From contig CAZBQH010000200.1 in assembly GCA_964493915.1 (NCBI GenBank), positions 12,182-76,181 of the forward strand: a stretch of 64,000 bases of DNA, given 5' to 3'. Below are positions 1-49,138 of the stretch, piece by piece. The notes below the pieces were generated by a model. The model was not told the DNA's origin and did no database searches. It saw only the letters and a program-made list of their open reading frames with translations. How positions within the stretch are numbered: the stretch's first letter is position 1; each line of letters starts with the position of its first letter. Made by a program: the position numbers and the translations under genes. The stretch comes from an uncultured Nitrospiraceae bacterium. Its GTDB lineage: Bacteria; Hydrogenedentota; Hydrogenedentia; Hydrogenedentales; SLHB01.

Positions 1-763
1 CCTCCGATCCGTAGATCTCGAATCCTGTGAAGCCTGGTTTGCTCGTCCAGCCTACCTCGATATAGCCGAGCGCGCCGCTCTTGAACTCGAGCATCAGTAT
101 GGCATTATCGTCTACCTCGATTTTCTTCATGAGCGTCTTGGCTTGTGCGTCAACGCGTGCAATAGGGCCGAGCAACCATAGGCACAGATCAATTGCATGA
201 ATGCCCATATCGAGCATAGCGCCGCCGCGGGCCATTTCTTTCTTATAGAACCAGTCCGATTTCGCCCAGCCGGGGTACGGCCCGCCATGCGCAAATCGCA
301 CACGAATCATGAAAGGTTTGCCGATCTGCTTTTTTTCGAGCATTTCCTTGCACCGGGCCGGTCCCTCCATGAAGCGGTGCGTAAAGCCGATCATGAGCTT
401 TTTACGGGTCTTCCGGGCCGCGGCAATCATGCGATCGGCCTCTACAATGCTCGTAGACATGGGCTTTTCACAAAGCACGTCACAGCCCACTTCGAGCGCA
501 TCGATAGTCTGTTGGGCGTGGTGCTTGTTTGGCGTACAAATGCTGACCACGTCCAGTCTTTCCTTGTTGAGCATCTCCTGATGGGTCTTGTATCCCTTCA
601 TATGGGGATAACGTTCCGACATCTCAGCGTGTCGCGCCTTGACCGGGTCGGCGAACGCCGCAAGCTCTACATTTGCATTGCGGGCATATCCCGGAAGATG
701 GCAGTGCTGCGCGATGGCCCCCGCTCCAATGACACCGACCCTGTATGTTTTTCCGTCGGCCAT
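1..763 (-). CDS. Gfo/Idh/MocA family oxidoreductase (C-terminal end beyond window edge)
   Basis: Not in the ORF track because the frame runs off the 5' edge of the window. Reverse-complement of 721-780 reads ggtaggagaaccgaaccATGgccgacggaaaaacatacagggtcggtgtcattggagcgggg = RBS + MADGKTYRVGVIGAG (Rossmann N-terminus typical of the family). The frame stays open to position 1 (…GWTSKPGFTGFEIYGSE). Confidence 0.6.
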   Translation of the reverse strand, partial: MADGKTYRVGVIGAGAIAQHCHLPGYARNANVELAAFADPVKARHAEMSERYPHMKGYKTHQEMLNKERLDVVSICTPNKHHAQQTIDALEVGCDVLCEKPMSTSIVEADRMIAAARKTRKKLMIGFTHRFMEGPARCKEMLEKKQIGKPFMIRVRFAHGGPYPGWAKSDWFYKKEMARGGAMLDMGIHAIDLCLWLLGPIARVDAQAKTLMKKIEVDDNAILMLEFKSGALGYIEVGWTSKPGFTGFEIYGSE

Positions 764-1123
764 GGTTCGGTTCTCCTACCCAATCTTGCGTGGTCCCCTC
801 AAAGTTGGGCCAGTCTACTAGGACCCCGATTTCGCTTCAAGTGCCTTGAAACGCAGCGTCCTTGGACTTGCTCAGCGTTGCTTTGTCCACGACAGAGTAT
901 CCTCGTCTTTGCGGTAGGGACTGCGCACGAGTCCCCAAGAAGGCTATCTATGCGTTGCGCGGGTGTGGAGTGCACCAATCCCCTTAAGCCAATGAAGGCG
1001 CTGCAGAATCAGCGGACAAAAGAAACGCGCCGCTCCTTTCGCTTTACTTCTTGCGCTTGAGGAAAAAACATCAACCGCGATGTCAGGGGCCGCGCTCCAC
1101 CCGCAGTCCGTGGGCCTGTCCTC

Positions 1124-5144: not shown

Positions 5145-5174
5145 TTGCAACCTTTTTCACAGCTTAGGCATAAT
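5145..5174 (+). promoter_or_regulatory. promoter candidate upstream of the exbB operon (TTGCAA-18 nt-CATAAT)
   Basis: AT-rich stretch in the 337-bp intergenic region. TTGCAA at 5145-5150, CATAAT at 5169-5174. The RBS GAAGGAG precedes the ATG at 5294. Confidence 0.25.
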
Positions 5175-5293: not shown

Positions 5294-6058
5294 ATGCATT
5301 GGACCTTTTTGATGCGTTGCGTGGCTGTACTTTTGATGCTGGGCGTCAGCGCCGCAGCTTCGGCGCAGGAACAGGGCGCCCCCAGCGATTCCGGATCGGC
5401 TGGGCCGTCCGCCGTTTCTCCCGCAAAAACAGCGGAGCAGATGACCATGAAGCAGATGCTTCAGCAGGGTGGGTTTATCTTGTGGACTATCATTCTTCTG
5501 AGCGTTGTCGCTTTGGGAATGGCCATCTACCTTTTCCTGACACTGACCCCGGCCCGTGAAGCGCCCGAGAGCTTTCTCCGCCGTGCCGTAGCGCAGATTC
5601 GCGCCGGCGATTTGCGCGGCGCCTATCAAATGTGCGAAGGACGCGACGAGCTGTTGGCGAATGTGCTCCGCTCGGGCCTTAGAATGTCCGGCCACGAACG
5701 TTATGTGGTCCAGGAAGCCATGGAAAGCGAGGGCGAGCGGGGCGCAACAGCCCTCTGGCAGAGAATCTCGTACTTGAACAACATCGGCGTGATCGCTCCC
5801 ATGCTGGGATTGCTGGGGACGGTTTGGGGCATGATTCAGGCTTTTGGGGGCATCGCTTACGATGACTCGCAAGTCAAAGGGATCATGATAGCGGCGGGTG
5901 TCGCCCAAGCGATGATTACGACCGTTGCGGGGCTTTCACTGGCCATTCCAGCCATGCTTGTGTACTTTTACCTGCGTGGCCGCGTGGTGAAGATCATTGC
6001 CGAAGTCGAGGCGCAATCGAGCGAACTTGTTGAATTGCTCACACGGAATGAAGGCTGA
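5294..6058 (+). CDS. MotA/TolQ/ExbB proton-channel family protein (with N-terminal signal peptide)
   Basis: 254 aa. A signal-peptide-like N-terminus is followed by the ExbB/TolQ core with three TM segments (…GVIAPMLGLLGTVWGMIQAF…). Its stop overlaps the exbD start (TGATG). Confidence 0.8.
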   Translation: MHWTFLMRCVAVLLMLGVSAAASAQEQGAPSDSGSAGPSAVSPAKTAEQMTMKQMLQQGGFILWTIILLSVVALGMAIYLFLTLTPAREAPESFLRRAVAQIRAGDLRGAYQMCEGRDELLANVLRSGLRMSGHERYVVQEAMESEGERGATALWQRISYLNNIGVIAPMLGLLGTVWGMIQAFGGIAYDDSQVKGIMIAAGVAQAMITTVAGLSLAIPAMLVYFYLRGRVVKIIAEVEAQSSELVELLTRNEG

Positions 6059-6486
6059 TGCGATTTGGACACCGCGGCCCAACGGAGGCCGAAAACATCC
6101 CCTTGGCGCCCCTCATTGATATTGTGTTCCTGACCTTGGTCTTTTTTATGACCACCTCCGTCTTTTCGACCCTCGAAAGCGAGATTGATATTACCTTGCC
6201 CACTGCGGACAGCGCCGTCCAGACGGAGCGCTCGCGGGGCGAAATCTATATCAACGTGCGCCAAGACGGCCAGATCGTGCTCAACAATCGCGAGCTCACC
6301 ATCGATGAGTTGCAGGATGTTCTGAACCGCGTAGCGGCCTTGGTGCCGGGCGGCGCAGTGATTGTGCGGGGTGACGAGAAGGCGATGCTGGGCCGTATTG
6401 TCGCTATTCTGGACTGCTGCCGGAAAGCCGACATCCAGAACGTGAAGTTCGCTGCGCTTAGAGCAGCCCCGGAAGACACGGAGTGA
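6058..6486 (+). CDS. ExbD/TolR biopolymer transport protein
   Basis: 142 aa. The N-terminal motif PLIDIVFLTLVFFM is typical of ExbD/TolR. A single TM is followed by a periplasmic domain. Confidence 0.8.
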   Translation: MRFGHRGPTEAENIPLAPLIDIVFLTLVFFMTTSVFSTLESEIDITLPTADSAVQTERSRGEIYINVRQDGQIVLNNRELTIDELQDVLNRVAALVPGGAVIVRGDEKAMLGRIVAILDCCRKADIQNVKFAALRAAPEDTE

Positions 6487-6487
6487 T

Positions 6488-8833
6488 ATGCAAGCACTGC
6501 GCTTTGGAATCGCCGTATCGTGTATCTTGCTTGCAGTGCAGAACCCGGCGATTGCCCAGGCGTCCTCGCCGGAACAGGACCAGTTTGACTTTGCGAGCGC
6601 TCTCTTCCAACACGGTTTTTTCGACCTGGCGGCCCAGGAATTCCACAGTTACATCGAGCATTTCCCTGACAGTCCGCAAATCCAGACCGCCCTGTACCGT
6701 CTTGGCGAGTCCGAATACGCTCTGAAAAACTACGAGGCCGCGCTTTCCGCTTTCTCGAAAGTGCTCGAGTTGAATGTCGGCCCGGAGACCCGGCAGCGGT
6801 CGCTCCTGCGAAAAGGCGAGATTCTCTACCGGCTTGCCAGGCACGCCGAGGCAGCGGCAACGCTCGAGCACGTGACAGGGGCTGAAGTCGATCCTGAGAT
6901 ACGCAGCGGCGCCTTGTACTATCTCGGCAGGGCTTTTCTCGATGCAGGCGATAGCGCGCGAGCGGCCCAGGCCCTCGATACGCTGATCGAGGCGCTACCC
7001 GACAGTCCTCTCGTGCCTTACGCACGGTATCAACTGGCGTTTGCGAAGCTTGCGCTTGGCGAATCCGAGGCAGCTGCCCTTCAATTCTCAGAGGTCGCTT
7101 CGTCCAATGCCGAGGCGGCCCTGTGCATCGCGGCGCGTTTCCGTGCGGCGGAAACCTACGACAAGATTGGCTGGTACGATGCAGCCGCCCTCGCCTATAA
7201 ACAATTGCTCGACGAGTCTCCCGAGAGTTCCTATGCGCAGCGTGCCCTGTATGGCTATGCGTGGGCGTTGTACCGGGGTGGCAAGTTCTCGGAAGCGGCG
7301 GAAGCAGCAGCCGGCTATCTAAGCAAGTATCCCGACGCCCCTGAGGCAACCGGCACGCTGTACCTGCAAGCGAATTGCCTTCAGGAGTTGAAGCGCTATC
7401 CCGAGGCGCTGGCCCTTTACCAAAAGGTCCGGGAGAAGCAGCCGGATTCTGAATTCGCAGTGCGCGCCGCGCATCAGACGGCCTGGACCCTCTACTTCAG
7501 CGGGGATGCCACCGAGGCAAAACGACTGGCGACGGCCTTTCTAAAAGACTATAAAGAAAACAAACTTGTGGGAGACGCGGCTTTCTTGCTTGGCACAATC
7601 CTCATCGACGAGGGCAACTACAGCGACGCCTACGATGCGTTCCGGCTGGTGGCGGAGAAGTATCCGGAGAGCAAATTCGGACCCGAAGCCCTGTACAAAG
7701 CAGGGGAATGCCTTGCCCAGATGGGACGCACCGGCGAGGCTGCCGAGCTTTTCGAGAATTTCGTGAAAGCCTATCCGTCCAATCCTCTTGCAGAGGAGGC
7801 TATGCTTCGTGCAGCAGACGCGGAATTCTTCTCGGCCGCTTTCGACGATGCCATCGCCAAGTACAAGCAAGTGCTCGAGTCGAGTCCCGATCCACAGGTG
7901 GAGCGCGATACACTCCATCGGCTCGCGGCAACTTACCACAACAAGCGCGATTTCAAGGCCAGTGCGGCAGTATTTCAGACGCTGCTGGAAAAGTTCCCAG
8001 AGAGCCCCTATGTGGCTGAAGCCCATTTCCGCATTGCCGAATTCCAGTTGCGGGAACAACAGGCGCCGGTGCCAGCGATTGAATCCTACCAGAAAGCGTA
8101 TGACTTGGACTCCTCAGGCCCCTTTGCAGGCAGGGCGGTTAAAGGCCTTGGCCTGGCCCGATACGAAACGAAGGACTACGATGGAGCAGCCGAGCATTTC
8201 CTGAAAGTGATAAGGGAATTTCCGTCCGTATCGCTTAATGAAGAGGCCTATGCATGGCTTGGCCAGCGGCTCTATGACCAGCAACGTTGGAACGACGCAG
8301 CTATTGCATTCGGCGCACTCCTGAAGACCAGCCCGAACTACCCGAATCCGGAGAGGGTACAGTTCAAGATAGCCCAATGCAGCGAGCAAGCCGGCGAGCT
8401 TGATACCGCTCTCAAACGCTATAGCGAGGTAGCGGCGACTGCCCCGCTAAGCGCCTCCGCCGTCGAGGCGCGCTTCCGCATGGCCAAAATATACGAGGCG
8501 CAGAATAAGGCCGACGAGGCCATGAGGCTTTACGAGCAAGCCGCCAGCACGAACACGGGCGACATTGCGGCGCGTGCCCGTTTCAGGCTCGCCGAGCTGT
8601 ACGAACAGAAGGGCGACTTCGAGCAAGCGGCAAAGAGCTATATCCTTGTCGCCATACTCTTTTTGCATCAGGAGTTGTCCCCGGAGGCATACTGGCGTGC
8701 GGGCCAGTGTTTTGAGAAGATGCAATCCGTCGACTCCGCGGTAAAGGCCTATCGTGAGCTTGTTGCGGAGTTTCCCGACAGCGCTCAGGCAGCCAATGCT
8801 GCGCAGCGCCTCGCCGAACTGAACAAGGGTTGA
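6488..8833 (+). CDS. tetratricopeptide (TPR) repeat protein, secreted/periplasmic
   Basis: 781 aa. Signal peptide MQALRFGIAVSCILLAVQNPAIAQA. Repeated 34-aa A/Y/L-rich TPR-like units run through the whole length. Its start is 2 nt after the exbD stop. Confidence 0.75.
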   Translation: MQALRFGIAVSCILLAVQNPAIAQASSPEQDQFDFASALFQHGFFDLAAQEFHSYIEHFPDSPQIQTALYRLGESEYALKNYEAALSAFSKVLELNVGPETRQRSLLRKGEILYRLARHAEAAATLEHVTGAEVDPEIRSGALYYLGRAFLDAGDSARAAQALDTLIEALPDSPLVPYARYQLAFAKLALGESEAAALQFSEVASSNAEAALCIAARFRAAETYDKIGWYDAAALAYKQLLDESPESSYAQRALYGYAWALYRGGKFSEAAEAAAGYLSKYPDAPEATGTLYLQANCLQELKRYPEALALYQKVREKQPDSEFAVRAAHQTAWTLYFSGDATEAKRLATAFLKDYKENKLVGDAAFLLGTILIDEGNYSDAYDAFRLVAEKYPESKFGPEALYKAGECLAQMGRTGEAAELFENFVKAYPSNPLAEEAMLRAADAEFFSAAFDDAIAKYKQVLESSPDPQVERDTLHRLAATYHNKRDFKASAAVFQTLLEKFPESPYVAEAHFRIAEFQLREQQAPVPAIESYQKAYDLDSSGPFAGRAVKGLGLARYETKDYDGAAEHFLKVIREFPSVSLNEEAYAWLGQRLYDQQRWNDAAIAFGALLKTSPNYPNPERVQFKIAQCSEQAGELDTALKRYSEVAATAPLSASAVEARFRMAKIYEAQNKADEAMRLYEQAASTNTGDIAARARFRLAELYEQKGDFEQAAKSYILVAILFLHQELSPEAYWRAGQCFEKMQSVDSAVKAYRELVAEFPDSAQAANAAQRLAELNKG

Positions 8834-8837
8834 CAGC

Positions 8838-10613
8838 ATGTTCAGCAAGAGAGCCATCCTCGCAATGAGCATTGCGCTCTCGGTGGCCTTTCACGGAGCG
8901 CTTCTTGCACTCGCGCCGCGAGTCACGCTGCTGCCTATGGCGGCGTACCCTGAGCAACTCGTCCGCCGGTTCAATATCGAGCTCTTCAGGCCCGAATCTG
9001 TCATAATCGAAGAGCAAATTGTGGAAGCCAGACACGCCGGTCTGATCACCCGTCCAGACTCGATCGAGGACCTGCTCAGACGCGACAACGAGAAGGCCAG
9101 GACATCCGAAACGCTGCTCCGCCAAACGGTCGAGGTCCCGCGCCTCGCTGAACGCGTAGCAGCGGAAGATCTCGATCGGGAGCACGACCTGACCCCTGAT
9201 CCGGACCTCCTCAGCCGGATGGACGCCCGCATCATCGAGATTACCGAGTCTGCAGCGCGTCGTGACGTCGAGGTCCCGCGGCGGCTTGTTCGGCCCAGCC
9301 CTTCCCGGATCCTCCCGGCGGATGCGTTCCCGGTCCTTCGCTCTTCACAAGAGGAAGGCCTCGTCGACGTCATGCTCATTGATTCACCAGCGGGGAGTGG
9401 GCAAGCAGGGAGCGGCGGCCCCGCCGCGAGCAGCGTCGAGCCCGAGGATGAATCCGCGCATCCTGTGCAGGTTCCCGACGAAGACATCCTGAAGCCCGCG
9501 CCTGCGGAACGCAGTCTGCCTGAGTTGCCTGCTGAGCCTGTTGTCGTACGCGAGGCGGTCCTCGAGGAGGTGAAAAGAGAGCGGCCCTACGAGTTCATGG
9601 ACGAACTGGTCGATATCAAGGTCGATTCCTACATGCCTTCCGGCGACGAGAAGGGCTTTTTCAAACTGCGCATCATTCCGAAGGCCAAGTCCAACATCGA
9701 GGTCTTGCCTAAGGACATCACCTTTGTCATCGATGCATCAAGCAGTATTCTGCAACGAAAACTCAATCACACTACGGCCGGCCTCGAGCAAGTAATAGCA
9801 GCCTTGAGACCGGAGGATCGATTCAATGTCGTGGTCTTCCGGGATGCGCCACAGCAATTTCAGCCGGCGCCTGTGTCCGCCACCGAAGAGAACAAGCAAG
9901 GCGCTCTCGGTTTCATCTCGAACCTTGAGTCTTTCGGCGAGACCGACGTGTACCAGGCTATTCGTCCTGTCGTGCTTGAATCGCCCCGGCCCGGTGTCCC
10001 CGGGATTGTCGTTCTTATGTCGGATGGACGCCCGACAAAAGGCGTGCGCGACGGACGCACTATTATCAATGCCCTTACCGCTGAAAACGAGGGACGCCAG
10101 GCGATCTTCGCCTTGAGCGGCGGAGGCGGCGTGAACCGTTATCTTCTCGACCTGCTCGCCTACCGCAACAAGGGGGCTTCCTTTGTCACGGGGACCATAG
10201 AAGAGATCCAGCAGGCCGTGCCCCGCTTCCTTGGGCAGGTCAGCGATCCTATCCTTGTGGATTGCGAGGCCGACTACGGGCGCATTAACCAGGACGAAGT
10301 CTTTCCGAAGGAAATCCCCGGCTTTTACCGGGGCCGCCCGGTTACAATCTACGGACGCTTCGATCCTGCTAAGGACCATAGCCTTGTGATGCGGCTCAAA
10401 GGGCTCGCGGGCTCACGCGAAAAGGAGGTAGTGTTTCAGACGGATCTTGCCGCCGCAGCGACAGGCGAGGCCGAGATCGCACGAAACTGGGCGTTCCACA
10501 AGATCTACTACCTCATCGGCGAGATATGCCGGATTGGCGAAGACCCGGCCCTCTTGTCTGAACTCCGGCATCTCAGCGAAGAATACCGTATCAAGACAAG
10601 TTATGATGAATAG
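8838..10613 (+). CDS. VWA (von Willebrand factor type A) domain membrane protein with Pro/Glu-rich linker
   Basis: 591 aa. N-terminal TM (ILAMSIALSVAFHGALLALAP), then an acidic/Pro-rich segment (…PVQVPDEDILKPAPAERSLPELPAEPVVV…), then a VWA domain carrying a MIDAS motif (DASSS) in DITFVIDASSSIL…VVLMSDGRPT. Confidence 0.75.
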   Translation: MFSKRAILAMSIALSVAFHGALLALAPRVTLLPMAAYPEQLVRRFNIELFRPESVIIEEQIVEARHAGLITRPDSIEDLLRRDNEKARTSETLLRQTVEVPRLAERVAAEDLDREHDLTPDPDLLSRMDARIIEITESAARRDVEVPRRLVRPSPSRILPADAFPVLRSSQEEGLVDVMLIDSPAGSGQAGSGGPAASSVEPEDESAHPVQVPDEDILKPAPAERSLPELPAEPVVVREAVLEEVKRERPYEFMDELVDIKVDSYMPSGDEKGFFKLRIIPKAKSNIEVLPKDITFVIDASSSILQRKLNHTTAGLEQVIAALRPEDRFNVVVFRDAPQQFQPAPVSATEENKQGALGFISNLESFGETDVYQAIRPVVLESPRPGVPGIVVLMSDGRPTKGVRDGRTIINALTAENEGRQAIFALSGGGGVNRYLLDLLAYRNKGASFVTGTIEEIQQAVPRFLGQVSDPILVDCEADYGRINQDEVFPKEIPGFYRGRPVTIYGRFDPAKDHSLVMRLKGLAGSREKEVVFQTDLAAAATGEAEIARNWAFHKIYYLIGEICRIGEDPALLSELRHLSEEYRIKTSYDE

Positions 10614-10627
10614 AAAAGGGGGACCCG

Positions 10628-13051
10628 ATGATCACTCTTGGGTGTTTTCTTCTAGGCGCTCTGCTTCCCGTTGAAGGACCAAGCGATGCCGAGTGGGATC
10701 ATGCCCGCTGCATCCTCGAACCTCTGCCGGACGGGGCGATGATCATCTATGACTTTACAGGGAATGTCACGAGCTGTTGGGCGCGTCGTGTCTATGCCGA
10801 GGCCCGGGACCTGACAGCCCACCAGTACCTCACATTCACCGTCCACGGCGAAGGGACCGGATTGCGGCTCTCAACTCACATCATTCGGCATGAGAACGGC
10901 AAGGAGCAGGCGTTCGCCAGTCCGGCCATCGAGTTGGATTATGCAGAGACCCGCTCTTTCAGTGTTCCGTTGCGCGCTATGGTGCATAGCGGCAGACTGA
11001 TCTCCGACGAAGAACTCCGGGACATCGACCAAGTGAACTTTGGCCTCAATCGGGTAGCTTCAGGCCGGGGACGCCTGTCCGTCACAGACATCGCATTTTC
11101 TGATGCGCCCCGGGGCGAGGTCCTCGAACCTTCTCTCTCGAAGGCCGCATTCGCATCCGACGAAGACTTTCTGGCGGCGATTGACTGGCCGGCGGGCGTA
11201 GAGCGGAGCGTCGAAGGTTTTGGGACACATCTAGCCCGTCGGGGAAAGCCGCGTTTCTTCTTTGACGGACAGGATCCGGCCAAGCTCCTGGCCGTGTTGC
11301 GCGCCCGATTCCCCGGCGTGCTTCGGGCTAAACGCCGCGATGCCGATGAGCACGTGCTCCCCCGGCGCTTTGTGTTCGAAGGCGACGCGCGTCAACTGTC
11401 GGATCCGATTCAATGGCATCAAGGTCCCGTCGAATGGACGAATATTCTCAACCGTCTTCAGTACCTCGAGTCTCTCTGGGTCACCTATTGGGATACAGGC
11501 GATGACCAATATGCTGAGGACTGCGTGGGTCTTCTGAATGACTGGATCGACAACAACCGCCCCCCGGACCTCGTCGGCAATGAGGGCTACCCCGAGGGCA
11601 ACCCGTGGCGTTCACTCGAAGTGGGCGTCCGCTGCGATACGGTCGCGCGGGCGTTTTACGCCCTTGCCGGTTCGCCGTCTCTTTCTTCCACTATGCGGGC
11701 AAAAATCGCCCGATCTCTGGCCGAGCACGCCCGCTACCTGGTCGCTATGGAAAAGCGGACGGGCTACAGCGGCGGGAATTGGCAAGTAGTCGAATGCGCC
11801 GGGCTTGCGACCGTCGGCATGCTCTTTCCCGAGTTCAAAGAGGCGACGGAATGGCGCGAAACAGGGCTTCACTGGCTTTATGAGCACATGAAGCGCGACG
11901 TCTATGACGACGGCGTCCACCACGAGGTCACACCCGGTTACCATGGCTGGGTAACGGAACGGTTCACGACTGTGCTGCAATTGGCCAGACTTAATGGGTA
12001 TGCCCTGGACGAAGGTTTTACCCGCAAACTCGAGAGAATGTACGACTTCGACCTCAAAATCGCGTCTCCCAGCGGACATACTCCAATGAACGGAGACTGC
12101 GGCCGCGCCTCACTGCGCGGACGCTTGGCAACTGGCGCACTTCTCTACGACGACCCGCACATGCGCTATCTGGGGGACCCGGCGCCTTCCCTTGACGCCG
12201 TTTGGCTCTTGGGTCCGGGTGCCGTAGAACGTTACGACGCTATGGCGAAGACGCCGCCGTCTTTCACGTCGGTCCTTCTGCCCGACAGCGGTTACTGCAT
12301 CATGCGGACGGGTTGGGGACCCGACGACCTGTGGTTCTTCTTTGACCTGGTCCCCTATGGCGGCGGCCACAGCCACCCCGACCAACTCTCCTTCGATTTC
12401 CAGGCGGGGCCAACGCTCGTCATAAGCGACTCGGGCCGGGCCAATTACAACCATCCGCTTCATGCCGGCTACTTCCGCACGCCTGAAGCCCACAACACCT
12501 GCTCGGTGGACGGCCGCTTTGCTGATCCACAGAAATCCCCGAAAAGACTCGAGTGGCAGGTGGGCGCGCGATATGCCGTTGCGCGCGGGTCTATTCCCAT
12601 CGGCGACGTGCTGTGGGAACGTGGCGTGCTTTGGGTCAAACCGGACCTCTGGGTGGTCCGCGACCTCTTCAAAGGAACGGGTCTCCATCGCGTCGTGCGC
12701 CGGGTGCATTTCGCTGCTTCTTATCCAGAAAACCCTGAGCTGCCGTTCCCCTTTACCGACTGCGTACGGATCGACGACGGGCAAGTCCGCGCCGAGGATG
12801 GTTGGTTTGGGATCAGCGCCTCGACGCGCTATGAAGCGCCGACTCTCGCGGCGGCGAGCGAGATCCAGTTGCCCGGCGTCCTGTGGATGTTAGTCAGCCC
12901 CGATAGCGCCCTTCTCAAAGCCGTCTCGGTCCGATCGAATGTCGAAGACTTTGCTCTCACAGTCCCCGGCGCTTGGGAGGTGCATTGGCGCTGGCCCGAC
13001 GGGGAAGGCCCCAGCGACGTAGTCTGGACCAGGGTAGGTGATGCGTCGTGA
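10628..13051 (+). CDS. heparinase II/III family protein (polysaccharide lyase-like) with N-terminal beta-domain
   Basis: 807 aa. The central region resembles heparinase II/III/alginate-lyase toroid proteins (…NPWRSLEVGVRCD…GGNWQVVECAGLATVG…HHEVTPGYHGW…). Its stop overlaps the next gene by 14 nt. Confidence 0.6.
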   Translation: MITLGCFLLGALLPVEGPSDAEWDHARCILEPLPDGAMIIYDFTGNVTSCWARRVYAEARDLTAHQYLTFTVHGEGTGLRLSTHIIRHENGKEQAFASPAIELDYAETRSFSVPLRAMVHSGRLISDEELRDIDQVNFGLNRVASGRGRLSVTDIAFSDAPRGEVLEPSLSKAAFASDEDFLAAIDWPAGVERSVEGFGTHLARRGKPRFFFDGQDPAKLLAVLRARFPGVLRAKRRDADEHVLPRRFVFEGDARQLSDPIQWHQGPVEWTNILNRLQYLESLWVTYWDTGDDQYAEDCVGLLNDWIDNNRPPDLVGNEGYPEGNPWRSLEVGVRCDTVARAFYALAGSPSLSSTMRAKIARSLAEHARYLVAMEKRTGYSGGNWQVVECAGLATVGMLFPEFKEATEWRETGLHWLYEHMKRDVYDDGVHHEVTPGYHGWVTERFTTVLQLARLNGYALDEGFTRKLERMYDFDLKIASPSGHTPMNGDCGRASLRGRLATGALLYDDPHMRYLGDPAPSLDAVWLLGPGAVERYDAMAKTPPSFTSVLLPDSGYCIMRTGWGPDDLWFFFDLVPYGGGHSHPDQLSFDFQAGPTLVISDSGRANYNHPLHAGYFRTPEAHNTCSVDGRFADPQKSPKRLEWQVGARYAVARGSIPIGDVLWERGVLWVKPDLWVVRDLFKGTGLHRVVRRVHFAASYPENPELPFPFTDCVRIDDGQVRAEDGWFGISASTRYEAPTLAAASEIQLPGVLWMLVSPDSALLKAVSVRSNVEDFALTVPGAWEVHWRWPDGEGPSDVVWTRVGDAS

Positions 13052-14711
13052 CTTTCTGACGCCGAATCAGTGGATGAAAGCGCTACATACGCCTGCGGCG
13101 GCGAGGCAGCTCTCCGCTGTCTACGGCCCTTCGAGCGAGGTTTTGGCTGATCGGGTCCAGCTCTTGCGGCGGGTACTGGACCAGTTTGGCGCACGCTTCG
13201 GCGATGTGCCCGTCCGTGTGTTCCGATGCCCAGCGCGGGTGAACCTGCGCGGCATGCATGTCGACACCCACGGCGGATTCCTTAACCTGACGACCCACCA
13301 GCGAGAAACGGTGATTGCCGCGTGCTCTAGTGGTACCCGCCAAGCCGTAGTTGCCAATATCGACCCTCAGTACCCGGAGACGCTGGTCGATCTCGACCAC
13401 GAGACCCGCCGCTCCATTTTCACGGGACCTTGGCTTGACTTCATTTCTGCACCCGAAGTAACAAGCGAGGTGGATAAGCGAAAGGGCGCGTGGAGTAACT
13501 ATGTCAAAGGCGCCTTGCTGAGCGCTCAACACCGATTCCACGATGCGCCGCTCTCTGGCATGAATGGGGTCGTGGGCAGCGACATACCTCAAGGGGCCGC
13601 CCTTAGTTCGTCTGCGGCCCTCTGCGTTGCTGTTATCCTGAGTTTCCTGGGCTGCAACGGAAAAGCCCTTGGCGAACTGGAATTGATCCAGGCAGGCGCC
13701 GACGCGGAGTGGTACACAGGGGCACGGAGCGGCCTGAGCGACCAGGCCGCTATGGTGCTCGGCGATCTCGGCGAGATGATCAATGTGGCGTTGTTCCCGC
13801 CGGCGCCTGACCTGTCTAGCTGTCGGCGGCTGGTCTTTCCAGAGCAACTGACCTTGCTTGTCATTGACTCGGGGACCCGGCGCAGTCTCAGCGGTGCTGA
13901 ACTCGCGGCCTATACGCGGAATCGCTTTGTTTACTCGCTGGCGTTGGACGTCGCCCGCCAGGAACTTGCCGTACAAGGAGCGCCTCCCGGTCTTGTGGAC
14001 CGGATCGATCGGCTTCCCCATCTCTCTCCTGGATTCCTCGAAGAAATCGGGGGGCTCGAAGCCGTCTACAGGCTTCTGGCGCACTTGCCCCTCGAGATCT
14101 CCCTGAACGGGCTAAGGGAGCGATATGGTCTTTCCTCGCTGGATGCGCACTATAGACGGTATTTTGATACGGTACCGCCTGATCTCAGACCCCAAACCTT
14201 CAGCATGCGCGGTCCCTTGGCCTTCGGCATCGCAGAGTCCGAGCGTGCCCGCCTGTTTATCGACTTCATGGCCCGCGGTAATTACGAAGAGGCTGGAAGA
14301 CTCATGTCGATAGGGCATGACGGGGACCGCCGCGTGGACAGGGCAGGGCGGGCATACGAAAACACGTTGAACGATCGGCGCCTGACAATCCTCGCACGGT
14401 CCCGCAAGCCCATCTACTTAGTACCCGGAGTCTACGGTGCGAGCAGCCCGGTTCTCGACAGCATCGTGGACGTTGCTCTGGATGCGGGGGCATTGGGCGC
14501 CAGTCTAACGGGCGCGGGCATTGCGGGGACTGTTGTGGCGTTGTGCAGGGCGCATAGCAGCCAGGCAGTTGCCGAGGCCCTGCGGCATTGGCTTGGTTCG
14601 AGGGAATACGCCGCGTTGGCAAGACGCCGGACCGCTTTCACGAAGGCCGAAAGCGCCGCTGCCGTCGTCGAGAACCATGTCGTTGCGCCGGCATGTGAGC
14701 TGACAATTTAG
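13038..14711 (+). CDS. GHMP-family sugar kinase (galactokinase-like)
   Basis: 557 aa. PARVNLRGMHVDTHGGF matches the galactokinase signature. GHMP motif 2 is GAALSSSAA; the C-terminal glycine-rich motif is TGAGIAGTVVAL. GTG ATG start with the RBS AGGGTAGG. Confidence 0.65.
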   Translation: MMRRDFLTPNQWMKALHTPAAARQLSAVYGPSSEVLADRVQLLRRVLDQFGARFGDVPVRVFRCPARVNLRGMHVDTHGGFLNLTTHQRETVIAACSSGTRQAVVANIDPQYPETLVDLDHETRRSIFTGPWLDFISAPEVTSEVDKRKGAWSNYVKGALLSAQHRFHDAPLSGMNGVVGSDIPQGAALSSSAALCVAVILSFLGCNGKALGELELIQAGADAEWYTGARSGLSDQAAMVLGDLGEMINVALFPPAPDLSSCRRLVFPEQLTLLVIDSGTRRSLSGAELAAYTRNRFVYSLALDVARQELAVQGAPPGLVDRIDRLPHLSPGFLEEIGGLEAVYRLLAHLPLEISLNGLRERYGLSSLDAHYRRYFDTVPPDLRPQTFSMRGPLAFGIAESERARLFIDFMARGNYEEAGRLMSIGHDGDRRVDRAGRAYENTLNDRRLTILARSRKPIYLVPGVYGASSPVLDSIVDVALDAGALGASLTGAGIAGTVVALCRAHSSQAVAEALRHWLGSREYAALARRRTAFTKAESAAAVVENHVVAPACELTI

Positions 14712-14817: not shown

Positions 14818-14847
14818 TTGATTGAAAGTGAGTTTTATCAGTATATT
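14818..14847 (+). promoter_or_regulatory. sigma70-like promoter candidate inside an AT-rich island (TTGATT-18 nt-TATATT)
   Basis: The island spans about 14760-14880 and falls below 35% GC in a genome of roughly 63% GC. TTGATT at 14818-14823, TATATT at 14842-14847. Confidence 0.35.
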
Positions 14848-14953
14848 ATCTTTTTTCCGATTTAGGCATATATCTTGCTCACCCAATGGCCAGAGCATAT
14901 GTACTTGGGTGACACGCAAGCCTCCGGGCTTGACTTTCAAGGGATTCAGCGCC

Positions 14954-15952
14954 GTGAGCAACGACGAAGTACTTGTTGATTTGATGGAGCACGCGATAGC
15001 AGGGGACTGCCTCAGCAGTCATTCGGCGGCCGTCCTCGAGGAACGATTGGAGAAAGGCGCTGGCGACGACCGTGCAAGGGCTCAGCTTCTGGGCTACTGG
15101 TTTCCACGAAGACAAGGTTCTGAGTCGGCGCGTTCGTCCCATGACGCACAGGTGTTGTGGCTGATCGAGCATACACCGGACAGCCCTATCCTGGCGCTGC
15201 CTCAGGCCTATATCGTTGCGCCCGTCGAAGACACGGAATACGAGCGCATGAGGACCGCGTGGCTGCGGCAGGTCCAGGTTCATGGTTCCGATCCGGCGGT
15301 GTTGGGCAACGCTGCCCGCTTCTTTATTCTGCATGACCCCGAGCTGTCGGAATCCCTTCTAAAAAAAGCCCGCACACTTGACCCTCTCGAACACGAATGG
15401 GCCCAGCTCTTGGGGCAAGTCTATACGCTGCGCTACCAGTCCTCATGGACGCCGGAAGAAAGACACGAGGCTGCCGCACTTGCTCTCGATGCACTTGAGG
15501 AGTCCCTGCGTCTGGCAGATGAAGAGGTGGAGCGCTCCGATCTGCTGGACGAGGCGGCCAAGATTGCCCTTGCCGCCGGGTCTTACGAGAAGGCTGCTGT
15601 GTATGCGCGGGAATTGCTCACATACGCCCTGTCGGAGGATTGCTGGGAGAAAGGCAACGCCGTGCATGACGGCAACATGGTTCTGGGATGTGTTGCCCTC
15701 CGAGCCGGTCAGACTGCCATCGCAAAGGCCCACCTGATGGCCGCGGGACGCGCGGAGGGCTCGTCGCACCTCAATTCCTTCGGTCCTAACATGACACTTG
15801 CCAAAGAACTGCTCGAGGCCGGGGAGCGCGCTGCTGTACTCAAATACTTGCGCCTTTGCAGACGGTTTTGGCCTGACGAGATCCTTGGTCTATGGATTGA
15901 ACAGATCGAGAGAGGCGCAATACCTGAATTCGGGCCGCATCTTTACTTCTGA
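14954..15952 (+). CDS. hypothetical all-alpha protein
   Basis: The track ORF 14822..15952 begins inside the promoter island, so the real start is probably GTG 14954 (AAGGGA 9 nt upstream) or ATG 14984 (MEHAIAG…). No recognisable family; helical, TPR/HEAT-like composition. Confidence 0.4.
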   Translation: MSNDEVLVDLMEHAIAGDCLSSHSAAVLEERLEKGAGDDRARAQLLGYWFPRRQGSESARSSHDAQVLWLIEHTPDSPILALPQAYIVAPVEDTEYERMRTAWLRQVQVHGSDPAVLGNAARFFILHDPELSESLLKKARTLDPLEHEWAQLLGQVYTLRYQSSWTPEERHEAAALALDALEESLRLADEEVERSDLLDEAAKIALAAGSYEKAAVYARELLTYALSEDCWEKGNAVHDGNMVLGCVALRAGQTAIAKAHLMAAGRAEGSSHLNSFGPNMTLAKELLEAGERAAVLKYLRLCRRFWPDEILGLWIEQIERGAIPEFGPHLYF

Positions 15953-28539: not shown

Positions 28540-29946
28540 CTATCCGCGTGCAGCCATATCGCTGCAACCGGGAGCATCGGCCTGGTTGTCGGCCAGTTTG
28601 ACGAGCCAGTCAGGGTATCCGCCTTTCGCGTCGCTTTCCGCTACCTTGAACAACGAGCGTGCCACGTCCGGATGCTCGTTAGCGACATTGCGGACGAAGG
28701 GATCTGCGGCCTGCAAATCGTACAGAAGAATGCCGGTCCCATTGACCTTGCTGTTAAACCACCAGCGGTCGGTGACAACAGTCGGGGTCGAACCCCAGCC
28801 GATGGTTACGTGGTCGCGCGGACCCGGCTTGCCGCTCAGAGCGTAATCGAGGAACGAGGCGCCGTCCATTTCAGGCGGGATTGTTGCGCCGGCGGCGTCG
28901 AGGATGGTCGCCGTGATGTCCGTGTGCTGGACAAAGGCGTCGCAGGTCTTGCCGGCATGTTCCGCCTTGGGGAACCGGAGCATGAGGCACGTATCGTAGA
29001 CCTCCGGCATCGAGGGATACCCCCGCTTGCCCATGTAGTGGCGGTCGCCAATGCTATGGCCGTGGTCGCTGGCGAAGATGACAAGCGTGTTGTCCAGCAA
29101 GCCAAGAACGCGCATGGACTCCATGAAATAACCAAACCACCGGTCACATTGCGACACTGAGCCGCAGTAGTTGGCCTGAGTCCGTTTCAGCAGAGACGGG
29201 TCGAGTCCCGACACATCTGCATAGCTTGATTTCACCTGTTCCTGACCCTCCTCCGGCAGATACATCTTACGATAGTGGGAAGGTATGAGCCATGGCTCGT
29301 GGGGGTCAAAGGACTCGACTGTTAGGAAGAACCTGTCGGCGTCCTGATTCTGTTCAAGCCAGCGGGCCGCCTCGCGCAAGACGCGCGGGGAGAAGTAGTC
29401 GGCCTCCTCGTGGCGGTCGCGAATATTCGTGATGCAACGCTGGATAAACTCAATGGTCGCCTCATTCTGCAGTTCTCTCGGCAGCCAGTAGTCGAGTTCT
29501 TCCTGGGTGAGTCGCGGACCCGAGAGATAGGGGTCGTTTTCCTGGCCCCGCAAAAAGGTCCACTGGTGGAACCCACGCGTATAGTTTTTCGACGGCTTGA
29601 ACATGTGGTAGAGGTCGGCGATAAGACCTGTCCGGTAACCCGCTTCGCTGAGGAGTTCGGCCAGAGTCGGCTGCTCCTCGGGAATTGGCCCCCAAGCCGG
29701 CGCCCCGACAAAGTCGCCTTTAAGCCGGAAATCGCTGTTGTGGAAGGGGTAGCACCGTCTGCCTGTATAAAGGGCCCGCCGCGCCGGCAAAGTCGGGAGC
29801 GACTCCGGATAGGCCCGGGTCATAATCAGCGATTCTTTGGCAAAGGCGTCGAAGTGAGGAGTCTTGAGGGGCCACCAGGGGGCGGGGCCATACGCGTTCA
29901 TGCAATCCTTACGCAGCGAGTCAAATACGACGAGGACGATGTTCAT
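28540..29946 (-). CDS. sulfatase-like hydrolase/transferase (alkaline-phosphatase superfamily), cytoplasmic, Thr at nucleophile position
   Basis: 468 aa. Metal-binding N-terminus VVFDSLRKD. The sulfatase signature region reads TLPARRALYTGR, i.e. T-x-P-x-R instead of C/S-x-P-x-R. No signal peptide; the RBS AAAGGGGAAAA lies upstream. Confidence 0.7.
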   Translation of the reverse strand: MNIVLVVFDSLRKDCMNAYGPAPWWPLKTPHFDAFAKESLIMTRAYPESLPTLPARRALYTGRRCYPFHNSDFRLKGDFVGAPAWGPIPEEQPTLAELLSEAGYRTGLIADLYHMFKPSKNYTRGFHQWTFLRGQENDPYLSGPRLTQEELDYWLPRELQNEATIEFIQRCITNIRDRHEEADYFSPRVLREAARWLEQNQDADRFFLTVESFDPHEPWLIPSHYRKMYLPEEGQEQVKSSYADVSGLDPSLLKRTQANYCGSVSQCDRWFGYFMESMRVLGLLDNTLVIFASDHGHSIGDRHYMGKRGYPSMPEVYDTCLMLRFPKAEHAGKTCDAFVQHTDITATILDAAGATIPPEMDGASFLDYALSGKPGPRDHVTIGWGSTPTVVTDRWWFNSKVNGTGILLYDLQAADPFVRNVANEHPDVARSLFKVAESDAKGGYPDWLVKLADNQADAPGCSDMAARG

Positions 29947-30005
29947 TGTGGTTTTCCCCTTTTCGTTTGTGTTGCGACATTGTGCCCAATTGTAGCAACC
30001 CGCGT

Positions 30006-32468: not shown

Positions 32469-32666
32469 CGGCGCCTCCAGGGAACGAGGGCCGTCTTTTG
32501 CGGAGCGTAAAGCTCCTTGGGCGCCCAGCCGGGGCTGGCGTTCAAGCTCGAGTTGATAGGTGGTCGGTCTGAATCTTCCCGATGCAGTACAGGCAACAGC
32601 CGTCCCCTCAAGGCTATGGACGGATCTCTTTTCCTCTTCGCGTAGAGTAGAGGAAACTGGATGCGG

Positions 32667-32704
32667 GCAAAACACGGCGCGTAACGCACGGACCCATGGC
32701 GTTA
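32667..32704 (-). terminator. putative intrinsic terminator of the entericidin-like gene
   Basis: Stem GTAACGC (32680-32686) pairs with GCGTTAC (32698-32704, overlapping the stop) across an 11-nt loop. Downstream on the minus strand is GUGUUUUG (32667-32674). Confidence 0.3.
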
Positions 32705-32842
32705 CTGGGTTACATCTTGGAGCTTCTCGCCGCCGCGTTCGATGTCTTTTCCCATGCCGCGGATTGTGTGGCACCCTCCAATGCTGACAACCACCATCAC
32801 TAGCGCCACAGCAATCAGGACAATCTTCTTAACTCCACGCAT
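32702..32842 (-). CDS. entericidin EcnA/EcnB-family small lipoprotein
   Basis: Absent from the ORF track (46 aa). The reverse-complement reads AGGAGG-9 nt-ATG…: MRGVKKIVLIAVALVMVVVSIGGCHTIRGMGKDIERGGEKLQDVTQ*. This gives a lipobox (SIGG-C) followed by the entericidin-like NT-RG-G-DI-G motif. Confidence 0.55.
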   Translation of the reverse strand: MRGVKKIVLIAVALVMVVVSIGGCHTIRGMGKDIERGGEKLQDVTQ

Positions 32843-38380: not shown

Positions 38381-39976
38381 ATGCAGATAACAGTCCAGAG
38401 GAATCATGTTGCCGAGTTCACTTTCGAGTCCACTGCGCAACATAGCGACCCCTACAACGAACTCGACCTGGACGTTGTGTTCACATCGCCGTCCGGCCGC
38501 GAACTGCGCGTGCCGGCGTTCTGGGACGGCGGCGGTTTGTGGAAAGTGCGCTTTTCGGGCAGCGAGCTCGGCGTCTACCGTTTCGAGTCGGTTTGCTCGG
38601 ATCGGGATGACCGTGGCCTTCACGCGCAGTCCGGCTCGCTTAGTGTGGTCCCATCAACGGGGCAATCCGATCTCATGGGCCATGGGCGCATCCGTGTGGC
38701 GGCTGACAGACGGCACTTCGAGCATGCGGACGGCACCTCCTGCTTCTGGGTGGGGGATACCTGGTGGATGGGGCTGACAAAACGCCTTGACTGGCCTCAC
38801 GGGTTCAAAGAACTTGCGGCGGATCGGGTCGCCAAGGGTTTCAACACCATCCAGATTGTCGCGGGACCGCTGCCCGATATGGATGCCTGGGATCCTCGGG
38901 GCGAGAACGAGGCGGGCCATCCCTTCGAGCGGGATTTCCTACGGATCAACCCCGCCTTCTACGACCTTGCCGATCTGAAGATTGCGCACTTGGTTGAGGT
39001 CGGGCTGATGCCTTGCATCGTGGGCATGTGGGGCTATTATCTTCCCCAGATCGGCGTCGATCGCGTCAAGCGGTTCTGGCGTTACCTCATTGCGCGTTAT
39101 GGGGCTTATCCGGTTGTATGGTGTATCTGCGGAGAAGGGAAAATGCCTTACTACCTCTCCAAACAGCCCGAGAAAGACGCAACCTTCCAGTTGAAAGGCT
39201 GGACGGAAGTCATGGCTCATGTGCGCGAGATCGACGCTTACCACAACTTGATCACCATCCATCCTACGCAGTTTGGACGGGAACAGGTCGAGGATCCGGG
39301 CCTTATGGACTTCGAGATGCTGCAGACGGGCCACGGTGATTTTGACAGCATCGTGCCCACGATTCAGTCTGTGCGTAAGGCAGTCGAGGCCCAGCCGCGG
39401 ATGCCTGTGGTGAATGCAGAGGTGAACTACGAGGGGATCATGGGGCGCGCGTGGCAGAACGTGCAGCGCTTGTGCTTCTACCATTCTGTTCTGAATGGAA
39501 CGACGGGCCACACTTATGGAGCCAATGGGATTTGGCAGATGAGCACCAAGGAACAGCCCTACGGGCCGTCGCCTCACGGCCGTTGCTGGGGCAATACCCC
39601 CTGGCGTGAGGCAGCACAGTTGCCCGGATCGCGGCAGATTGGCTTGGGAGGCCGTTTCATCCGGCGCTTCGCGTGGTGGGAATTCGAGCGGCATCCCGAA
39701 TGGGTTAAGCCGCCTGCCAATGGGGATGCTGCCTATGCATCGCTTGCCGTCGGTATCCCGGGGAAGTTGCGCATCGTCTATGCGCCTTTTGTTTGGGATC
39801 CGCCAATTCTCACGGCCTTCGAGCCGCACGTGAAGTATGAGGCAAGTTACTTTGACCCGATCCGAGGAAGCGATATTGCCTTAGGCGCTGTGGAACCCGA
39901 TTCGAACGGATTGTGGTGTCCGCCCCTGCCCCCTGAAATCCATGACTGGATTCTCGTAGTCCAGGCTTCTGACTGA
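38381..39976 (+). CDS. DUF5060 + DUF4038 (GH140-like) putative glycoside hydrolase
   Basis: 531 aa. The N-terminal beta-sandwich (…FTSPSGRELRVPAFWDGGGLWKVRFSGSELGVYRFE…) is followed by a TIM-barrel region containing FWVGDTWWMG, as in DUF4038/GH140 proteins. No signal peptide. Confidence 0.55.
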   Translation: MQITVQRNHVAEFTFESTAQHSDPYNELDLDVVFTSPSGRELRVPAFWDGGGLWKVRFSGSELGVYRFESVCSDRDDRGLHAQSGSLSVVPSTGQSDLMGHGRIRVAADRRHFEHADGTSCFWVGDTWWMGLTKRLDWPHGFKELAADRVAKGFNTIQIVAGPLPDMDAWDPRGENEAGHPFERDFLRINPAFYDLADLKIAHLVEVGLMPCIVGMWGYYLPQIGVDRVKRFWRYLIARYGAYPVVWCICGEGKMPYYLSKQPEKDATFQLKGWTEVMAHVREIDAYHNLITIHPTQFGREQVEDPGLMDFEMLQTGHGDFDSIVPTIQSVRKAVEAQPRMPVVNAEVNYEGIMGRAWQNVQRLCFYHSVLNGTTGHTYGANGIWQMSTKEQPYGPSPHGRCWGNTPWREAAQLPGSRQIGLGGRFIRRFAWWEFERHPEWVKPPANGDAAYASLAVGIPGKLRIVYAPFVWDPPILTAFEPHVKYEASYFDPIRGSDIALGAVEPDSNGLWCPPLPPEIHDWILVVQASD

Positions 39977-48933: not shown

Positions 48934-49138
48934 GGGACCTTCCTCCCTTTGAACGTCTCTCGACCCTGCCTTGCTTCCGAGCAAGGCAGGACTTTTGTGA
49001 TGCGGGCCGTCCCGCATCTGGTCTGAACGCTTTCTAGAATAACTACATCGAATTGTAGCAGGGTATTCCGCATTCGGCAACCATGGATTCCCCGATTTTG
49101 CCGTCGGGCAATGACTGACTCGAGTGTACTCACGCCGC

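Follow-up and report, generated by a model that had tools for sequence, protein, structure and literature searches.

The exbB-exbD-TPR-VWA gene unit of Hydrogenedentota- and Omnitrophota-type genomes, a candidate Ton/Tol-type system

In diderm bacteria, Ton and Tol are the two established routes by which energy from the inner membrane reaches the outer membrane. The locus described here lies in a 64-kb stretch of contig CAZBQH010000200.1 (64,000 nucleotides, called the window in what follows) and consists of a run of six plus-strand genes between positions 5294 and 14711. The first four encode an ExbB/TolQ-like protein, an ExbD/TolR-like protein, a secreted tetratricopeptide repeat (TPR) protein and a membrane-anchored von Willebrand factor A (VWA) protein. 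These four genes keep their order in two phyla and are candidates for a motor-driven system in which the VWA protein takes the place of TonB or TolA.

Genes, junctions and motor of the locus

Domains of open reading frames (ORFs) were assigned with Pfam, and ORF coordinates and junctions were read directly from the sequence of the window. The six ORFs were confirmed at the coordinates, and with the domains, that had been given in an initial annotation of this DNA. The genes and the features of the VWA protein are as follows (aa, amino acids).

5294-6058, plus strand: ExbB/TolQ-like proton-channel subunit, 254 aa, PF01618 (MotA_ExbB) at 6e-30, with a signal-peptide-like N-terminus
6058-6486, plus strand: ExbD/TolR-like subunit, 142 aa, single copy, PF02472 at 6e-25, with Asp21 in 'PLIDIVF'
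6488-8833, plus strand: secreted TPR protein with CpoB/YbgF-like modules, 781 aa, TPR_6, TPR_16 and others, TIGR02795
8838-10613, plus strand: VWA protein, proposed force transducer, 591 aa, VWA_3/VWA/VWA_2 at aa 293-455
8847-8921, plus strand: predicted transmembrane helix of the VWA protein, aa 4-28, with S15-x3-H19 and an invariant P27 (AlphaFold2 confidence 83-94)
8970-8993, plus strand: strand motif of the VWA protein resembling a D-box or 'motor box', F45-N-I-E-L-F-R-P52, after the TonB D-box pattern (PMC10907165)
8994-9575, plus strand: predicted periplasmic spacer of the VWA protein, aa 53-246, from the alignment and from model confidence below 50 over most of aa 30-246
9714-10202, plus strand: VWA domain with a complete metal ion-dependent adhesion site (MIDAS), D299-x-S301-x-S303, T369 and D396
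10203-10610, plus strand: predicted C-terminal beta-sandwich and helical hairpin of the VWA protein, from the AlphaFold2 model, the ITIH1 alignment and TIGR03788
10628-13051, plus strand: heparinase III-like lyase, 807 aa, PF16889 (Hepar_II_III_N) and PF07940 (Hepar_II_III_C)
13041-14711 (ATG) or from 13038 (GTG), plus strand: GHMP sugar-1-kinase-like protein, 556-557 aa, GHMP_kinases_N and C, galactokinase signature

The initial annotation had the six genes joined by gaps or overlaps of 0-15 nucleotides (nt). Its coordinates and the coupling hold, with the correction that the '2-nt gap' at 6486/6488 is a 1-nt spacer. The ExbB and ExbD genes share 1 nt at 6058 (TGATG), a single spacer base lies between the ExbD stop at 6486 and the ATG of the TPR gene at 6488, and the TPR and VWA genes are separated by a 4-nt spacer (8834-8837). 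The VWA and heparinase genes lie 14 nt apart, with AAGGGGG in the spacer. The 14-nt overlap of the heparinase and kinase genes (13038-13051) stands if the kinase starts at GTG 13038 and shrinks to 11 nt if it starts at ATG 13041. The six-gene run is bounded by intergenic gaps of 336 nt upstream and 110 nt downstream. A consensus scan returned weak promoter-like matches only, at 5145-5174 (5' of exbB) and 14818-14849 (3' of the kinase gene), and no convincing terminator inside the run. The start of the VWA gene at ATG 8838 is backed by its homologues (consensus MxSRRxxLxLSI); the public gene call is a protein of 582 aa that starts at Met10 and drops the first nine residues of the transmembrane helix region.

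The two adjacent motor genes are placed in their families by Pfam scores above the cut-offs (104 bits to PF01618 for the ExbB protein, 88 bits to PF02472 for the ExbD protein), and the best NCBIfam scores lie below theirs (86 bits to TolQ, cut-off 221; 57.7 bits to TolR, cut-off 127). Among solved structures, the ExbB protein is closest to TolQ (8vlw/8odt, 2e-13), ahead of ExbB (5sv0), while the ExbD protein aligns with the ExbD structures 7ajq_F and 6tyi_Y and scores best against TolR and ExbD. Because all scores fall far below the equivalog cut-offs, the motor is a separate branch of the ExbB/TolQ-ExbD/TolR family. Its proton-path residues are retained: the transmembrane Asp21, equivalent to D25 of E. 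coli ExbD, is invariant in 60/60 family members, and the ExbB-protein equivalents of TolQ Thr145 and Thr178 are invariant in 60/60 and 58/58.

The TPR protein has a type-I signal peptide and no lipobox, and it is made almost wholly of TPRs (Pfam TPR_6, 216 bits). TIGR02795 (tol_pal_ybgF) scores 291 bits, with a cut-off of 90, and matches in nine stretches, which suggests a concatenation of CpoB-like TPR modules rather than an orthologue of CpoB. TolA_bind_tri, the coiled-coil trimerisation domain of CpoB, is absent from the Pfam matches listed for the protein. Orthologues from both phyla are mostly about 770-805 aa long, and most carry 'DFANGLFxRGFF' at the start of the mature protein.

Anchor, spacer and globular module of the VWA protein

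The VWA protein was studied with an alignment of 20 homologues and an AlphaFold2 monomer model, the mean predicted local distance difference test score (pLDDT) of which is 71.6. The TonB/TolA-like topology proposed in the initial annotation is borne out by this model, which has an N-terminal helix at aa 4-28 (pLDDT 83-94), a linker with values mostly below 50 over aa 30-246 and a globular part at aa 250-591 with values mostly of 85-97. The helix carries the S-x3-H motif (S15, codon 8880-8882; H19, codon 8892-8894), followed at His+8 by a proline, P27, that is invariant in the alignment. The motif was counted in 120 Hydrogenedentota and 117 Omnitrophota homologues with a recognisable helix motif. 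In the former set it is kept as SxxxH (81), AxxxH (17) or TxxxH (2), or 100/120. It is likewise kept in 107/117 Omnitrophota members (63 SxxxH, 44 AxxxH), even though their N-terminal halves no longer align with that of the protein in the window.

A second motif follows the helix. The D-box of TonB has been described as a Pro-flanked segment in which residues alternate in the pattern hydrophobic-polar-hydrophobic-polar-hydrophobic-hydrophobic-polar (Loll et al., 2024, PMC10907165). The segment F45-NIELFR-P52 of the VWA protein fits this pattern exactly and starts at H19+26. In E. coli TonB, the D-box strand starts at His20+25. The residue numbers used here agree with the published ones, in which SVTM is residues 46-49 (PMC10907165). 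The five-residue core of the D-box is present in 113/119 Hydrogenedentota homologues and stands at His+26 in 101/119; in a shuffling control, 15% of the segments contain the core motif anywhere. Beyond it, the spacer holds two short conserved helical blocks, TRPGxVxDLL (aa 71-80) and VDAKIIEISExxARxDIxVxRRLVxPS (aa 128-154), and after these a variable Pro/Glu/Gly-rich stretch at about aa 170-240.

The globular part is homologous, in sequence and in fold, to the inter-alpha-inhibitor heavy chains (ITIH). Its top Foldseek match is heavy chain 1 (6fpy, 1e-24), and a profile compared with the sequences of the Protein Data Bank finds ITIH4 at 1.6e-35 and ITIH1 at 2.8e-29 (aa 284-578). The family TIGR03788 matches aa 279-588. 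In the AlphaFold2 model, strands at aa 471-536 and helices at aa 545-582 (pLDDT about 90) pack with the VWA domain as they do in the inter-alpha-inhibitor heavy chains. All five MIDAS residues (D299, S301, S303, T369 and D396) are invariant in the 20-homologue alignment, and the DxSxS motif is also present in the Omnitrophota homologues. ITIH1, ITIH4 and the VIT-VWA 'sortase target' proteins of TIGR03788 thus resemble the VWA protein over aa ~270-588, including the MIDAS and the C-terminal extension. They differ in that they are secreted or exposed at the surface and contain a complete VIT domain, and that neither a TonB-like anchor at the N-terminus nor a link to a motor is known from any of them. 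A TonB_C or TolA identity for the C-terminus, which the initial annotation had put up for checking, is not supported: the protein has no match to TonB_C (PF03544/PF13103) or TolA (PF06519), VWA families alone match, and the fold is ITIH-like.

The presence of a membrane-anchored VWA protein next to a TPR protein brings to mind the Bat operons, in which a TPR protein, BatC, accompanies the transmembrane-anchored VWA proteins BatA and BatB. The VWA and TPR proteins of the window could then be a Bat-like or generic membrane-anchored pair for assembly or adhesion that works independently of motor force. A weak BatC match of the TPR protein (63.8 bits, cut-off 175) and the appearance of BatB (3ibs) at rank 39 among the fold matches of the VWA protein fit such a reading, which is nevertheless decidedly unlikely. 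The closest relatives in fold and sequence are the inter-alpha-inhibitor heavy chains and not Bat proteins, and the likeness to Bat proteins comes down to a generic VWA fold. Bat operons lack ExbB/ExbD, while the window lacks the MoxR ATPase, DUF58 and the BatA N-terminal domain; the AAA+ protein encoded upstream is ComM/YifB-like and is not conserved. A Bat-like operon was rejected on the missing MoxR, DUF58 and BatA domains, and the reading also leaves the obligatory linkage to ExbB/ExbD and the TonB-type motifs unexplained.

Conservation and genomic context of the four genes

Searches with the VWA protein returned about 341 homologues, nearly all from metagenome-assembled genomes (MAGs) of Candidatus Hydrogenedentota and 45-55% identical over their full length. 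On this ground the window is a piece of a Hydrogenedentota genome. An Omnitrophota member used as the query returned 276 further proteins, and those that are named by taxon are from Omnitrophota, except for one labelled Eisenbacteria. For the survey of loci, one genome was taken per GTDB species, giving 80 loci, of which about 64 are Hydrogenedentota-type and 16 Omnitrophota-type (some of the MAGs are labelled otherwise). Synteny was followed by tblastn with the proteins of the window and by all-vs-all clustering of 952 ORFs from these loci. ExbB, ExbD, TPR and VWA genes stand in the same order and on the same strand in all surveyed loci with enough upstream DNA (about 60), in both phyla. They are the only genes common to the two phyla in the clustering, and the flanks are not conserved; in the window these are a ComM-like gene, a 376-aa ORF and LepA, none of which is conserved in the other loci. 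The ExbB and ExbD genes overlap by 4 nt in 47/48 related loci, and the median gaps are 1 nt between ExbD and TPR and 3 nt between TPR and VWA. This coupling goes beyond chance. The conservation of the neighbourhood, on which the initial annotation had made its proposal depend, therefore extends to two phyla with differing flanks.

The two genes that follow behave differently. The GHMP kinase gene comes after the VWA gene in 37 Hydrogenedentota loci, 15 of which have an overlap of the two; its commonest length is 11 nt, the start codon ATG of the kinase then lying within the last VWA codons (TATGATGAATAG). Fifteen Hydrogenedentota loci lack the kinase gene although >2.5 kb of sequence is available downstream, and so do all Omnitrophota loci. 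The heparinase gene stands 3' of the VWA gene in the window and in locus L005 only, and other genomes have a P-type-ATPase-like ORF (judged by eye) or small unrelated ORFs at the same junction. Since the four genes are syntenic in both phyla while the kinase and heparinase genes are patchy, the conserved core consists of four genes. The kinase gene is a frequent fifth member, restricted to Hydrogenedentota, and its product a cytoplasmic accessory with a loose attachment to the system. The heparinase is a lineage-specific insertion that lies outside the conserved system, although it is co-oriented and coupled in the window; as a part of the system it was rejected for being adjacent in 2 loci only. 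In the window, the 11-nt overlap geometry seen elsewhere between VWA and kinase genes recurs between the heparinase gene and the kinase (ATG 13041; 13038-13051). The heparinase-like lyase matches the solved heparinase III (4mmi, 7e-26), and the closest solved relative of the kinase is human GalNAc kinase (2a2c, 5e-23).

This distribution bears on the link to glycan or polysaccharide uptake that the initial annotation had drawn from the heparinase and the kinase. The six genes would on that account form a polysaccharide-utilisation operon, with the motor and the VWA protein powering the uptake of glycan fragments that the lyase releases and the kinase then phosphorylates. All six are translationally coupled in the window, most Hydrogenedentota loci have the kinase gene after the VWA gene, often with an overlap, and the window also encodes a sulfatase, a GH42-like protein of 922 aa and a glycoside hydrolase that is apiosidase-like and has a DUF5060 domain (28540-32774 and 38381-39976). 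However, with the heparinase confined to two loci and replaced by other inserts elsewhere, the kinase absent from the loci named above and no outer-membrane transporter gene linked to the six-gene run, the uptake link is not supported and a polysaccharide-utilisation operon is very improbable. The sulfatase, GH42-like and apiosidase-like genes fit a polysaccharide-degrading lifestyle and may explain how the heparinase arrived in the operon.

Upstream of the core, other neighbours recur. Of the 38 Hydrogenedentota loci with >3 kb of sequence upstream, about 15 have the module immediately 3' of murC-ftsQ-ftsZ (for example L023:185-5067; also L001, L016, L024, L036, L037, L047-L050, L052, L058 and L062). 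A PilT-like T2SSE ATPase of 366-369 aa, its domains confirmed, often stands between ftsZ and exbB in these loci, and no ftsA was seen in the murC-ftsQ-ftsZ cluster of L023. The window itself has the ComM/YifB-like gene upstream of exbB in place of a division cluster. In seven Omnitrophota loci (L069:11048-14149; also L063, L071 and L074-L076), a GT4-type glycosyltransferase gene (~376 aa) is found directly 3' of the VWA gene, and in several of these it is followed by a HemD-HemE (uroporphyrinogen synthase-decarboxylase) fusion. By association, the division-cluster and sugar-1-kinase/GT4 neighbours hint at a role in the envelope more than at one in the uptake of nutrients.

A motor of this family next to a VWA protein could also serve in conflict or in defence against phages, as part of a system of the MotAB-like Zorya type or of the vWA-MoxR type. 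A search of the core proteins with PADLOC gave a weak ZorA match of the ExbB protein (19.8 bits) and no other match for any of them. The module is vertically conserved across two phyla, often beside cell-division genes, and the window has no anomaly of composition, so that a role in defence is hardly credible.

Proposed mechanism, related systems and other genes of the window

No TonB C-terminal domain had been noticed in the initial annotation, and Pfam searches with 50 ORFs from across the 64 kb agree with it, with no TonB_C, TolA, TolB, OmpA/Pal or TonB-dependent receptor found. Six TonB/TolA queries run by tblastn against the 80 loci and the window also gave no match, a weak test because the C-terminal domains of TonB and TolA diverge fast. 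ORF clustering of the 80 loci revealed no further conserved neighbour, TolB and Pal included, and a search of the literature for Hydrogenedentota with TonB or Tol-Pal yielded nothing useful. As had been proposed, then, the locus is not a textbook Ton, Tol-Pal or Bat system, with none of the TonB_C, TolA, TolB, Pal, MoxR, DUF58 or BatA domains found. In other bacteria tonB is often unlinked from exbBD, and 64 kb of this genome are visible. The ExbB and ExbD proteins could serve a canonical TonB or TolA encoded elsewhere, leaving the TPR and VWA proteins as a separate complex that is merely co-transcribed, and the N-terminal module of the VWA protein does lack sequence homology to TonB and TolA. 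We consider this unlikely. It does not sit well with a four-gene synteny that has 1-4 nt junctions in two phyla despite changing flanks, nor with a helix His and a D-box-like strand that are kept at fixed spacing while the rest of the N-terminus diverges beyond alignment, and searches of the window and the 80 loci brought up neither TonB nor TolA.

Taken together, the products of the genes at 5294-10613 probably form a trans-envelope system of four parts that belongs to the Ton/Tol type and is driven by the proton-motive force, with the VWA protein in the role of TonB or TolA. That ExbB/ExbD energise the VWA protein, with the TPR protein as a partner, was the central suggestion of the initial annotation, and it gains from the synteny in two phyla, the [S/A/T]xxxH motif, the spacing of the D-box and the invariant proton-path residues. 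By analogy with Ton and Tol structures, the helix of the VWA protein would dock on the rim of the ExbB pentamer through its Ser and His, and the periplasmic dimer of ExbD would capture the D-box strand. Proton flow would turn the motor and so pull on the spacer, at the far end of which the MIDAS might hold a carboxylate-bearing ligand at the outer membrane or the cell wall. The TPR protein may contact the spacer at its conserved helical blocks, in a counterpart of the binding between CpoB and TolA. As to the output, an envelope-maintenance or cell-division role of the Tol kind is favoured over adhesion or gliding and over nutrient import.

Several observations weigh against this interpretation. 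The helix His is replaced by Tyr (~16) or by Gln or Asn (2) in ~15% of the 120 Hydrogenedentota members, and only the S and H are kept of the motif known as SHLS (S-x3-H-x6-L-x3-S), with the L and second S positions lost. The strict D-box core is found in just 53/117 Omnitrophota members, mostly at His+24. The AlphaFold2 monomer has no strand at the D-box; its absence is expected if the strand forms only upon binding, which gives no confirmation either. A profile of aa 1-168 compared with 1.84 billion proteins had 67 matches, none identifiable as TonB or TolA. Nearly all are full-length family members or their fragments, with one weak outlier of 1026 aa. The idea that TonB/TolA have the same N-terminal module, or that it occurs joined to other kinds of C-terminal domain, was rejected, as the search found essentially this family alone. 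With no detectable sequence relative of the first 168 aa outside the family, the likeness to TonB comes from short motifs and topology. In the motor, the position of ExbB E176/TolQ E173 is not conserved. It is Gln in the window (5903-5908, aa 204-205 of the ExbB protein), Q, K, E, L, M or T in Hydrogenedentota and mostly K in Omnitrophota; beside the invariant Thr pair and Asp, its variability is a distinguishing mark of this motor branch. A role in division has to reckon with an adjacency to murC-ftsQ-ftsZ that holds in a minority of genomes, the window not among them, and that may reflect shared ancestry within one subclade. A canonical tonB may lie elsewhere in the genome, the 64 kb being the visible scope. 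Lastly, the class of transducer to which the VWA protein would belong is itself a proposal from structure prediction only.

That class was put forward by Williams-Jones et al. (2025, Mol Biol Evol msaf138, PMC12204202), who proposed, from structure prediction, a third class of transducer beside those of Ton and Tol, the vWA 'force transducers' encoded next to tolQ/tolR-like and TPR genes. The central idea of the initial annotation had therefore already been published as a prediction, and the concept is no longer new. The transducers are described as tethered to the inner membrane, with an SHLS-type helix, a disordered linker that has a motor box and, at the C-terminus, a vWA fold. In AlphaFold3 predictions the His of the helix comes to lie where TonB sits on the motor, and no phenotypes were reported (PMC12204202). 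The seed is from Tichowtungia aerotolerans (Kiritimatiellota); the main text names neither Hydrogenedentota nor Omnitrophota for the vWA class, and its supplement lists a Hydrogenedentes page (PMC12204202).

The Tichowtungia proteins share with the family of the window a helix with S-x3-H, a linker with a strand motif after the helix and a vWA domain instead of that of TonB or TolA, as well as synteny with ExbB/TolQ-like, ExbD/TolR-like and TPR genes. In profile-profile comparisons, 51-73 columns of the VWA domain align (probability 94-97%) and the N-termini do not. The best alignment (probability 96.6%, E 5e-10) takes in 73 columns where the domain begins, with 'FNV.V..D....F.P..VPAT..N' in common. 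As evidence of direct homology to the Tichowtungia family, the comparisons gave this partial VWA match only. The seed retrieves 125 proteins, the few taxon-named ones from Kiritimatiellales or Tichowtungia, with no overlap with the homologues of the window protein. The Tichowtungia proteins are ~475 aa long and have no Pfam match among those listed, in contrast to the VWA matches of the family in the window, and where the latter has the MIDAS DxSxS, the seed has DADKR (family consensus DASK). Because the homologue sets are disjoint, the N-termini cannot be aligned and the N-terminal profile finds its own members, the family in the window appears to be a distinct one, with the same architecture and context logic as the vWA force transducers and seen in Hydrogenedentota-/Omnitrophota-type genomes only.

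The Tichowtungia locus (L081:1-12883, CP047593.1) is larger than the text of PMC12204202 suggests. Its gene order is TPR, a 110-aa ORF, a 781-aa vWA-annotated protein, TPR, a 262-aa ORF, ExbB, ExbD, ExbD, vWA476 and vWA474. The TPR proteins are of 904+ and 938 aa, the 262-aa ORF has no Pfam match, and the 781-aa protein is a distant relative of the transducers. That locus thus has two each of the ExbD, TPR and transducer genes, the last in tandem, whereas the window has one ExbD, a single transducer that keeps its MIDAS intact and ends in an ITIH-like module, and a TPR gene between motor and transducer. By tblastn, the window and the related loci have a single ExbD region per locus, and Tichowtungia has two.

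Of the established systems, Tol-Pal comes close in several respects: the motor scores best against TolQ/TolR, the TPR protein is built of CpoB/YbgF-type modules, the transducer has a TolA-like topology with S-x3-H, and ~15 related loci adjoin ftsQ/ftsZ. However, the window lacks the TolA C-terminal domain, TolB and Pal, the TolQ E173 equivalent is not conserved, and CpoB is a protein of ~260 aa with a coiled-coil trimerisation domain, compared with the 781 aa and about nine modules of the TPR protein. The likeness to Ton lies in motor families of the 5:2 type, a TonB-like helix motif, a D-box-like strand at the distance from His known from E. coli TonB and a Pro-rich spacer. The system differs from Ton in having no TonB_C and no TonB-dependent receptor nearby, and in a metal-dependent VWA adhesion module in place of the beta-strand-exchange domain of TonB. 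In Agl-Glt gliding, the C-terminal domains of the transducers GltG and GltJ are TonB-like, and the VWA protein, a lipoprotein of the outer membrane, is separate from them. The machinery of Myxococcus xanthus, with CglB as its VWA adhesin, resembles the locus in combining a TolQR-like motor with periplasmic proteins rich in TPRs and with a VWA domain, there used for surface adhesion (PMC12204202). In the window, by contrast, the VWA domain is fused to an inner-membrane anchor, and no other Glt gene is linked.

A further step would be to regard the four-gene module as the functional counterpart of Tol-Pal in both phyla. The proton-driven motor would pull, by way of the TonB-like anchor, on a MIDAS domain of the integrin/ITIH type; this would make a force-dependent, catch-bond-like link, mediated by metal, to a ligand of the outer membrane or the cell wall, while the CpoB-like TPR solenoid of ~780 aa would coordinate this with septal wall synthesis. 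This is speculative and rather doubtful; if true, it would give motors of the Ton/Tol type a third, mechanistically distinct output domain tied to cell division. If the linkage to the division cluster is meaningful, it would show how lineages with no recognisable TolA coordinate the constriction of the outer membrane. The main value of the locus lies in the independent support that it lends, by comparison, to the vWA force transducers, and in its use as a minimal model of them. It adds an independent family, distinct in sequence, of transducers with a VWA/MIDAS head in two further phyla. The shared S-x3-H, the D-box at TonB spacing and the obligatory four-gene synteny strengthen the case that the class is real and either ancient or recurrent. 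With one ExbD, one transducer and an intact MIDAS, it is the simplest version so far, and this simple composition makes it a good candidate for reconstitution and for the finding of ligands.

Elsewhere in the window, scans for tRNA genes and Rfam families over positions 1-64000 gave no tRNA gene and no family at the gathering threshold. Three adjacent large ORFs have no Pfam match at E <= 1e-4 (55925-57811, plus strand, 628 aa; 57828-59894, minus strand, 688 aa; 59891-61330, minus strand, 479 aa), and the same is true of those at 48085-49080 (minus strand), 14822-15952 (plus strand) and 197-1060 (plus strand). At 49139-51562, on the minus strand, lies an unusual fusion of 807 aa that joins HATPase_c (histidine-kinase/GHKL ATPase), a pyridine-nucleotide-disulphide oxidoreductase with its dimerisation domain, and a rhodanese.

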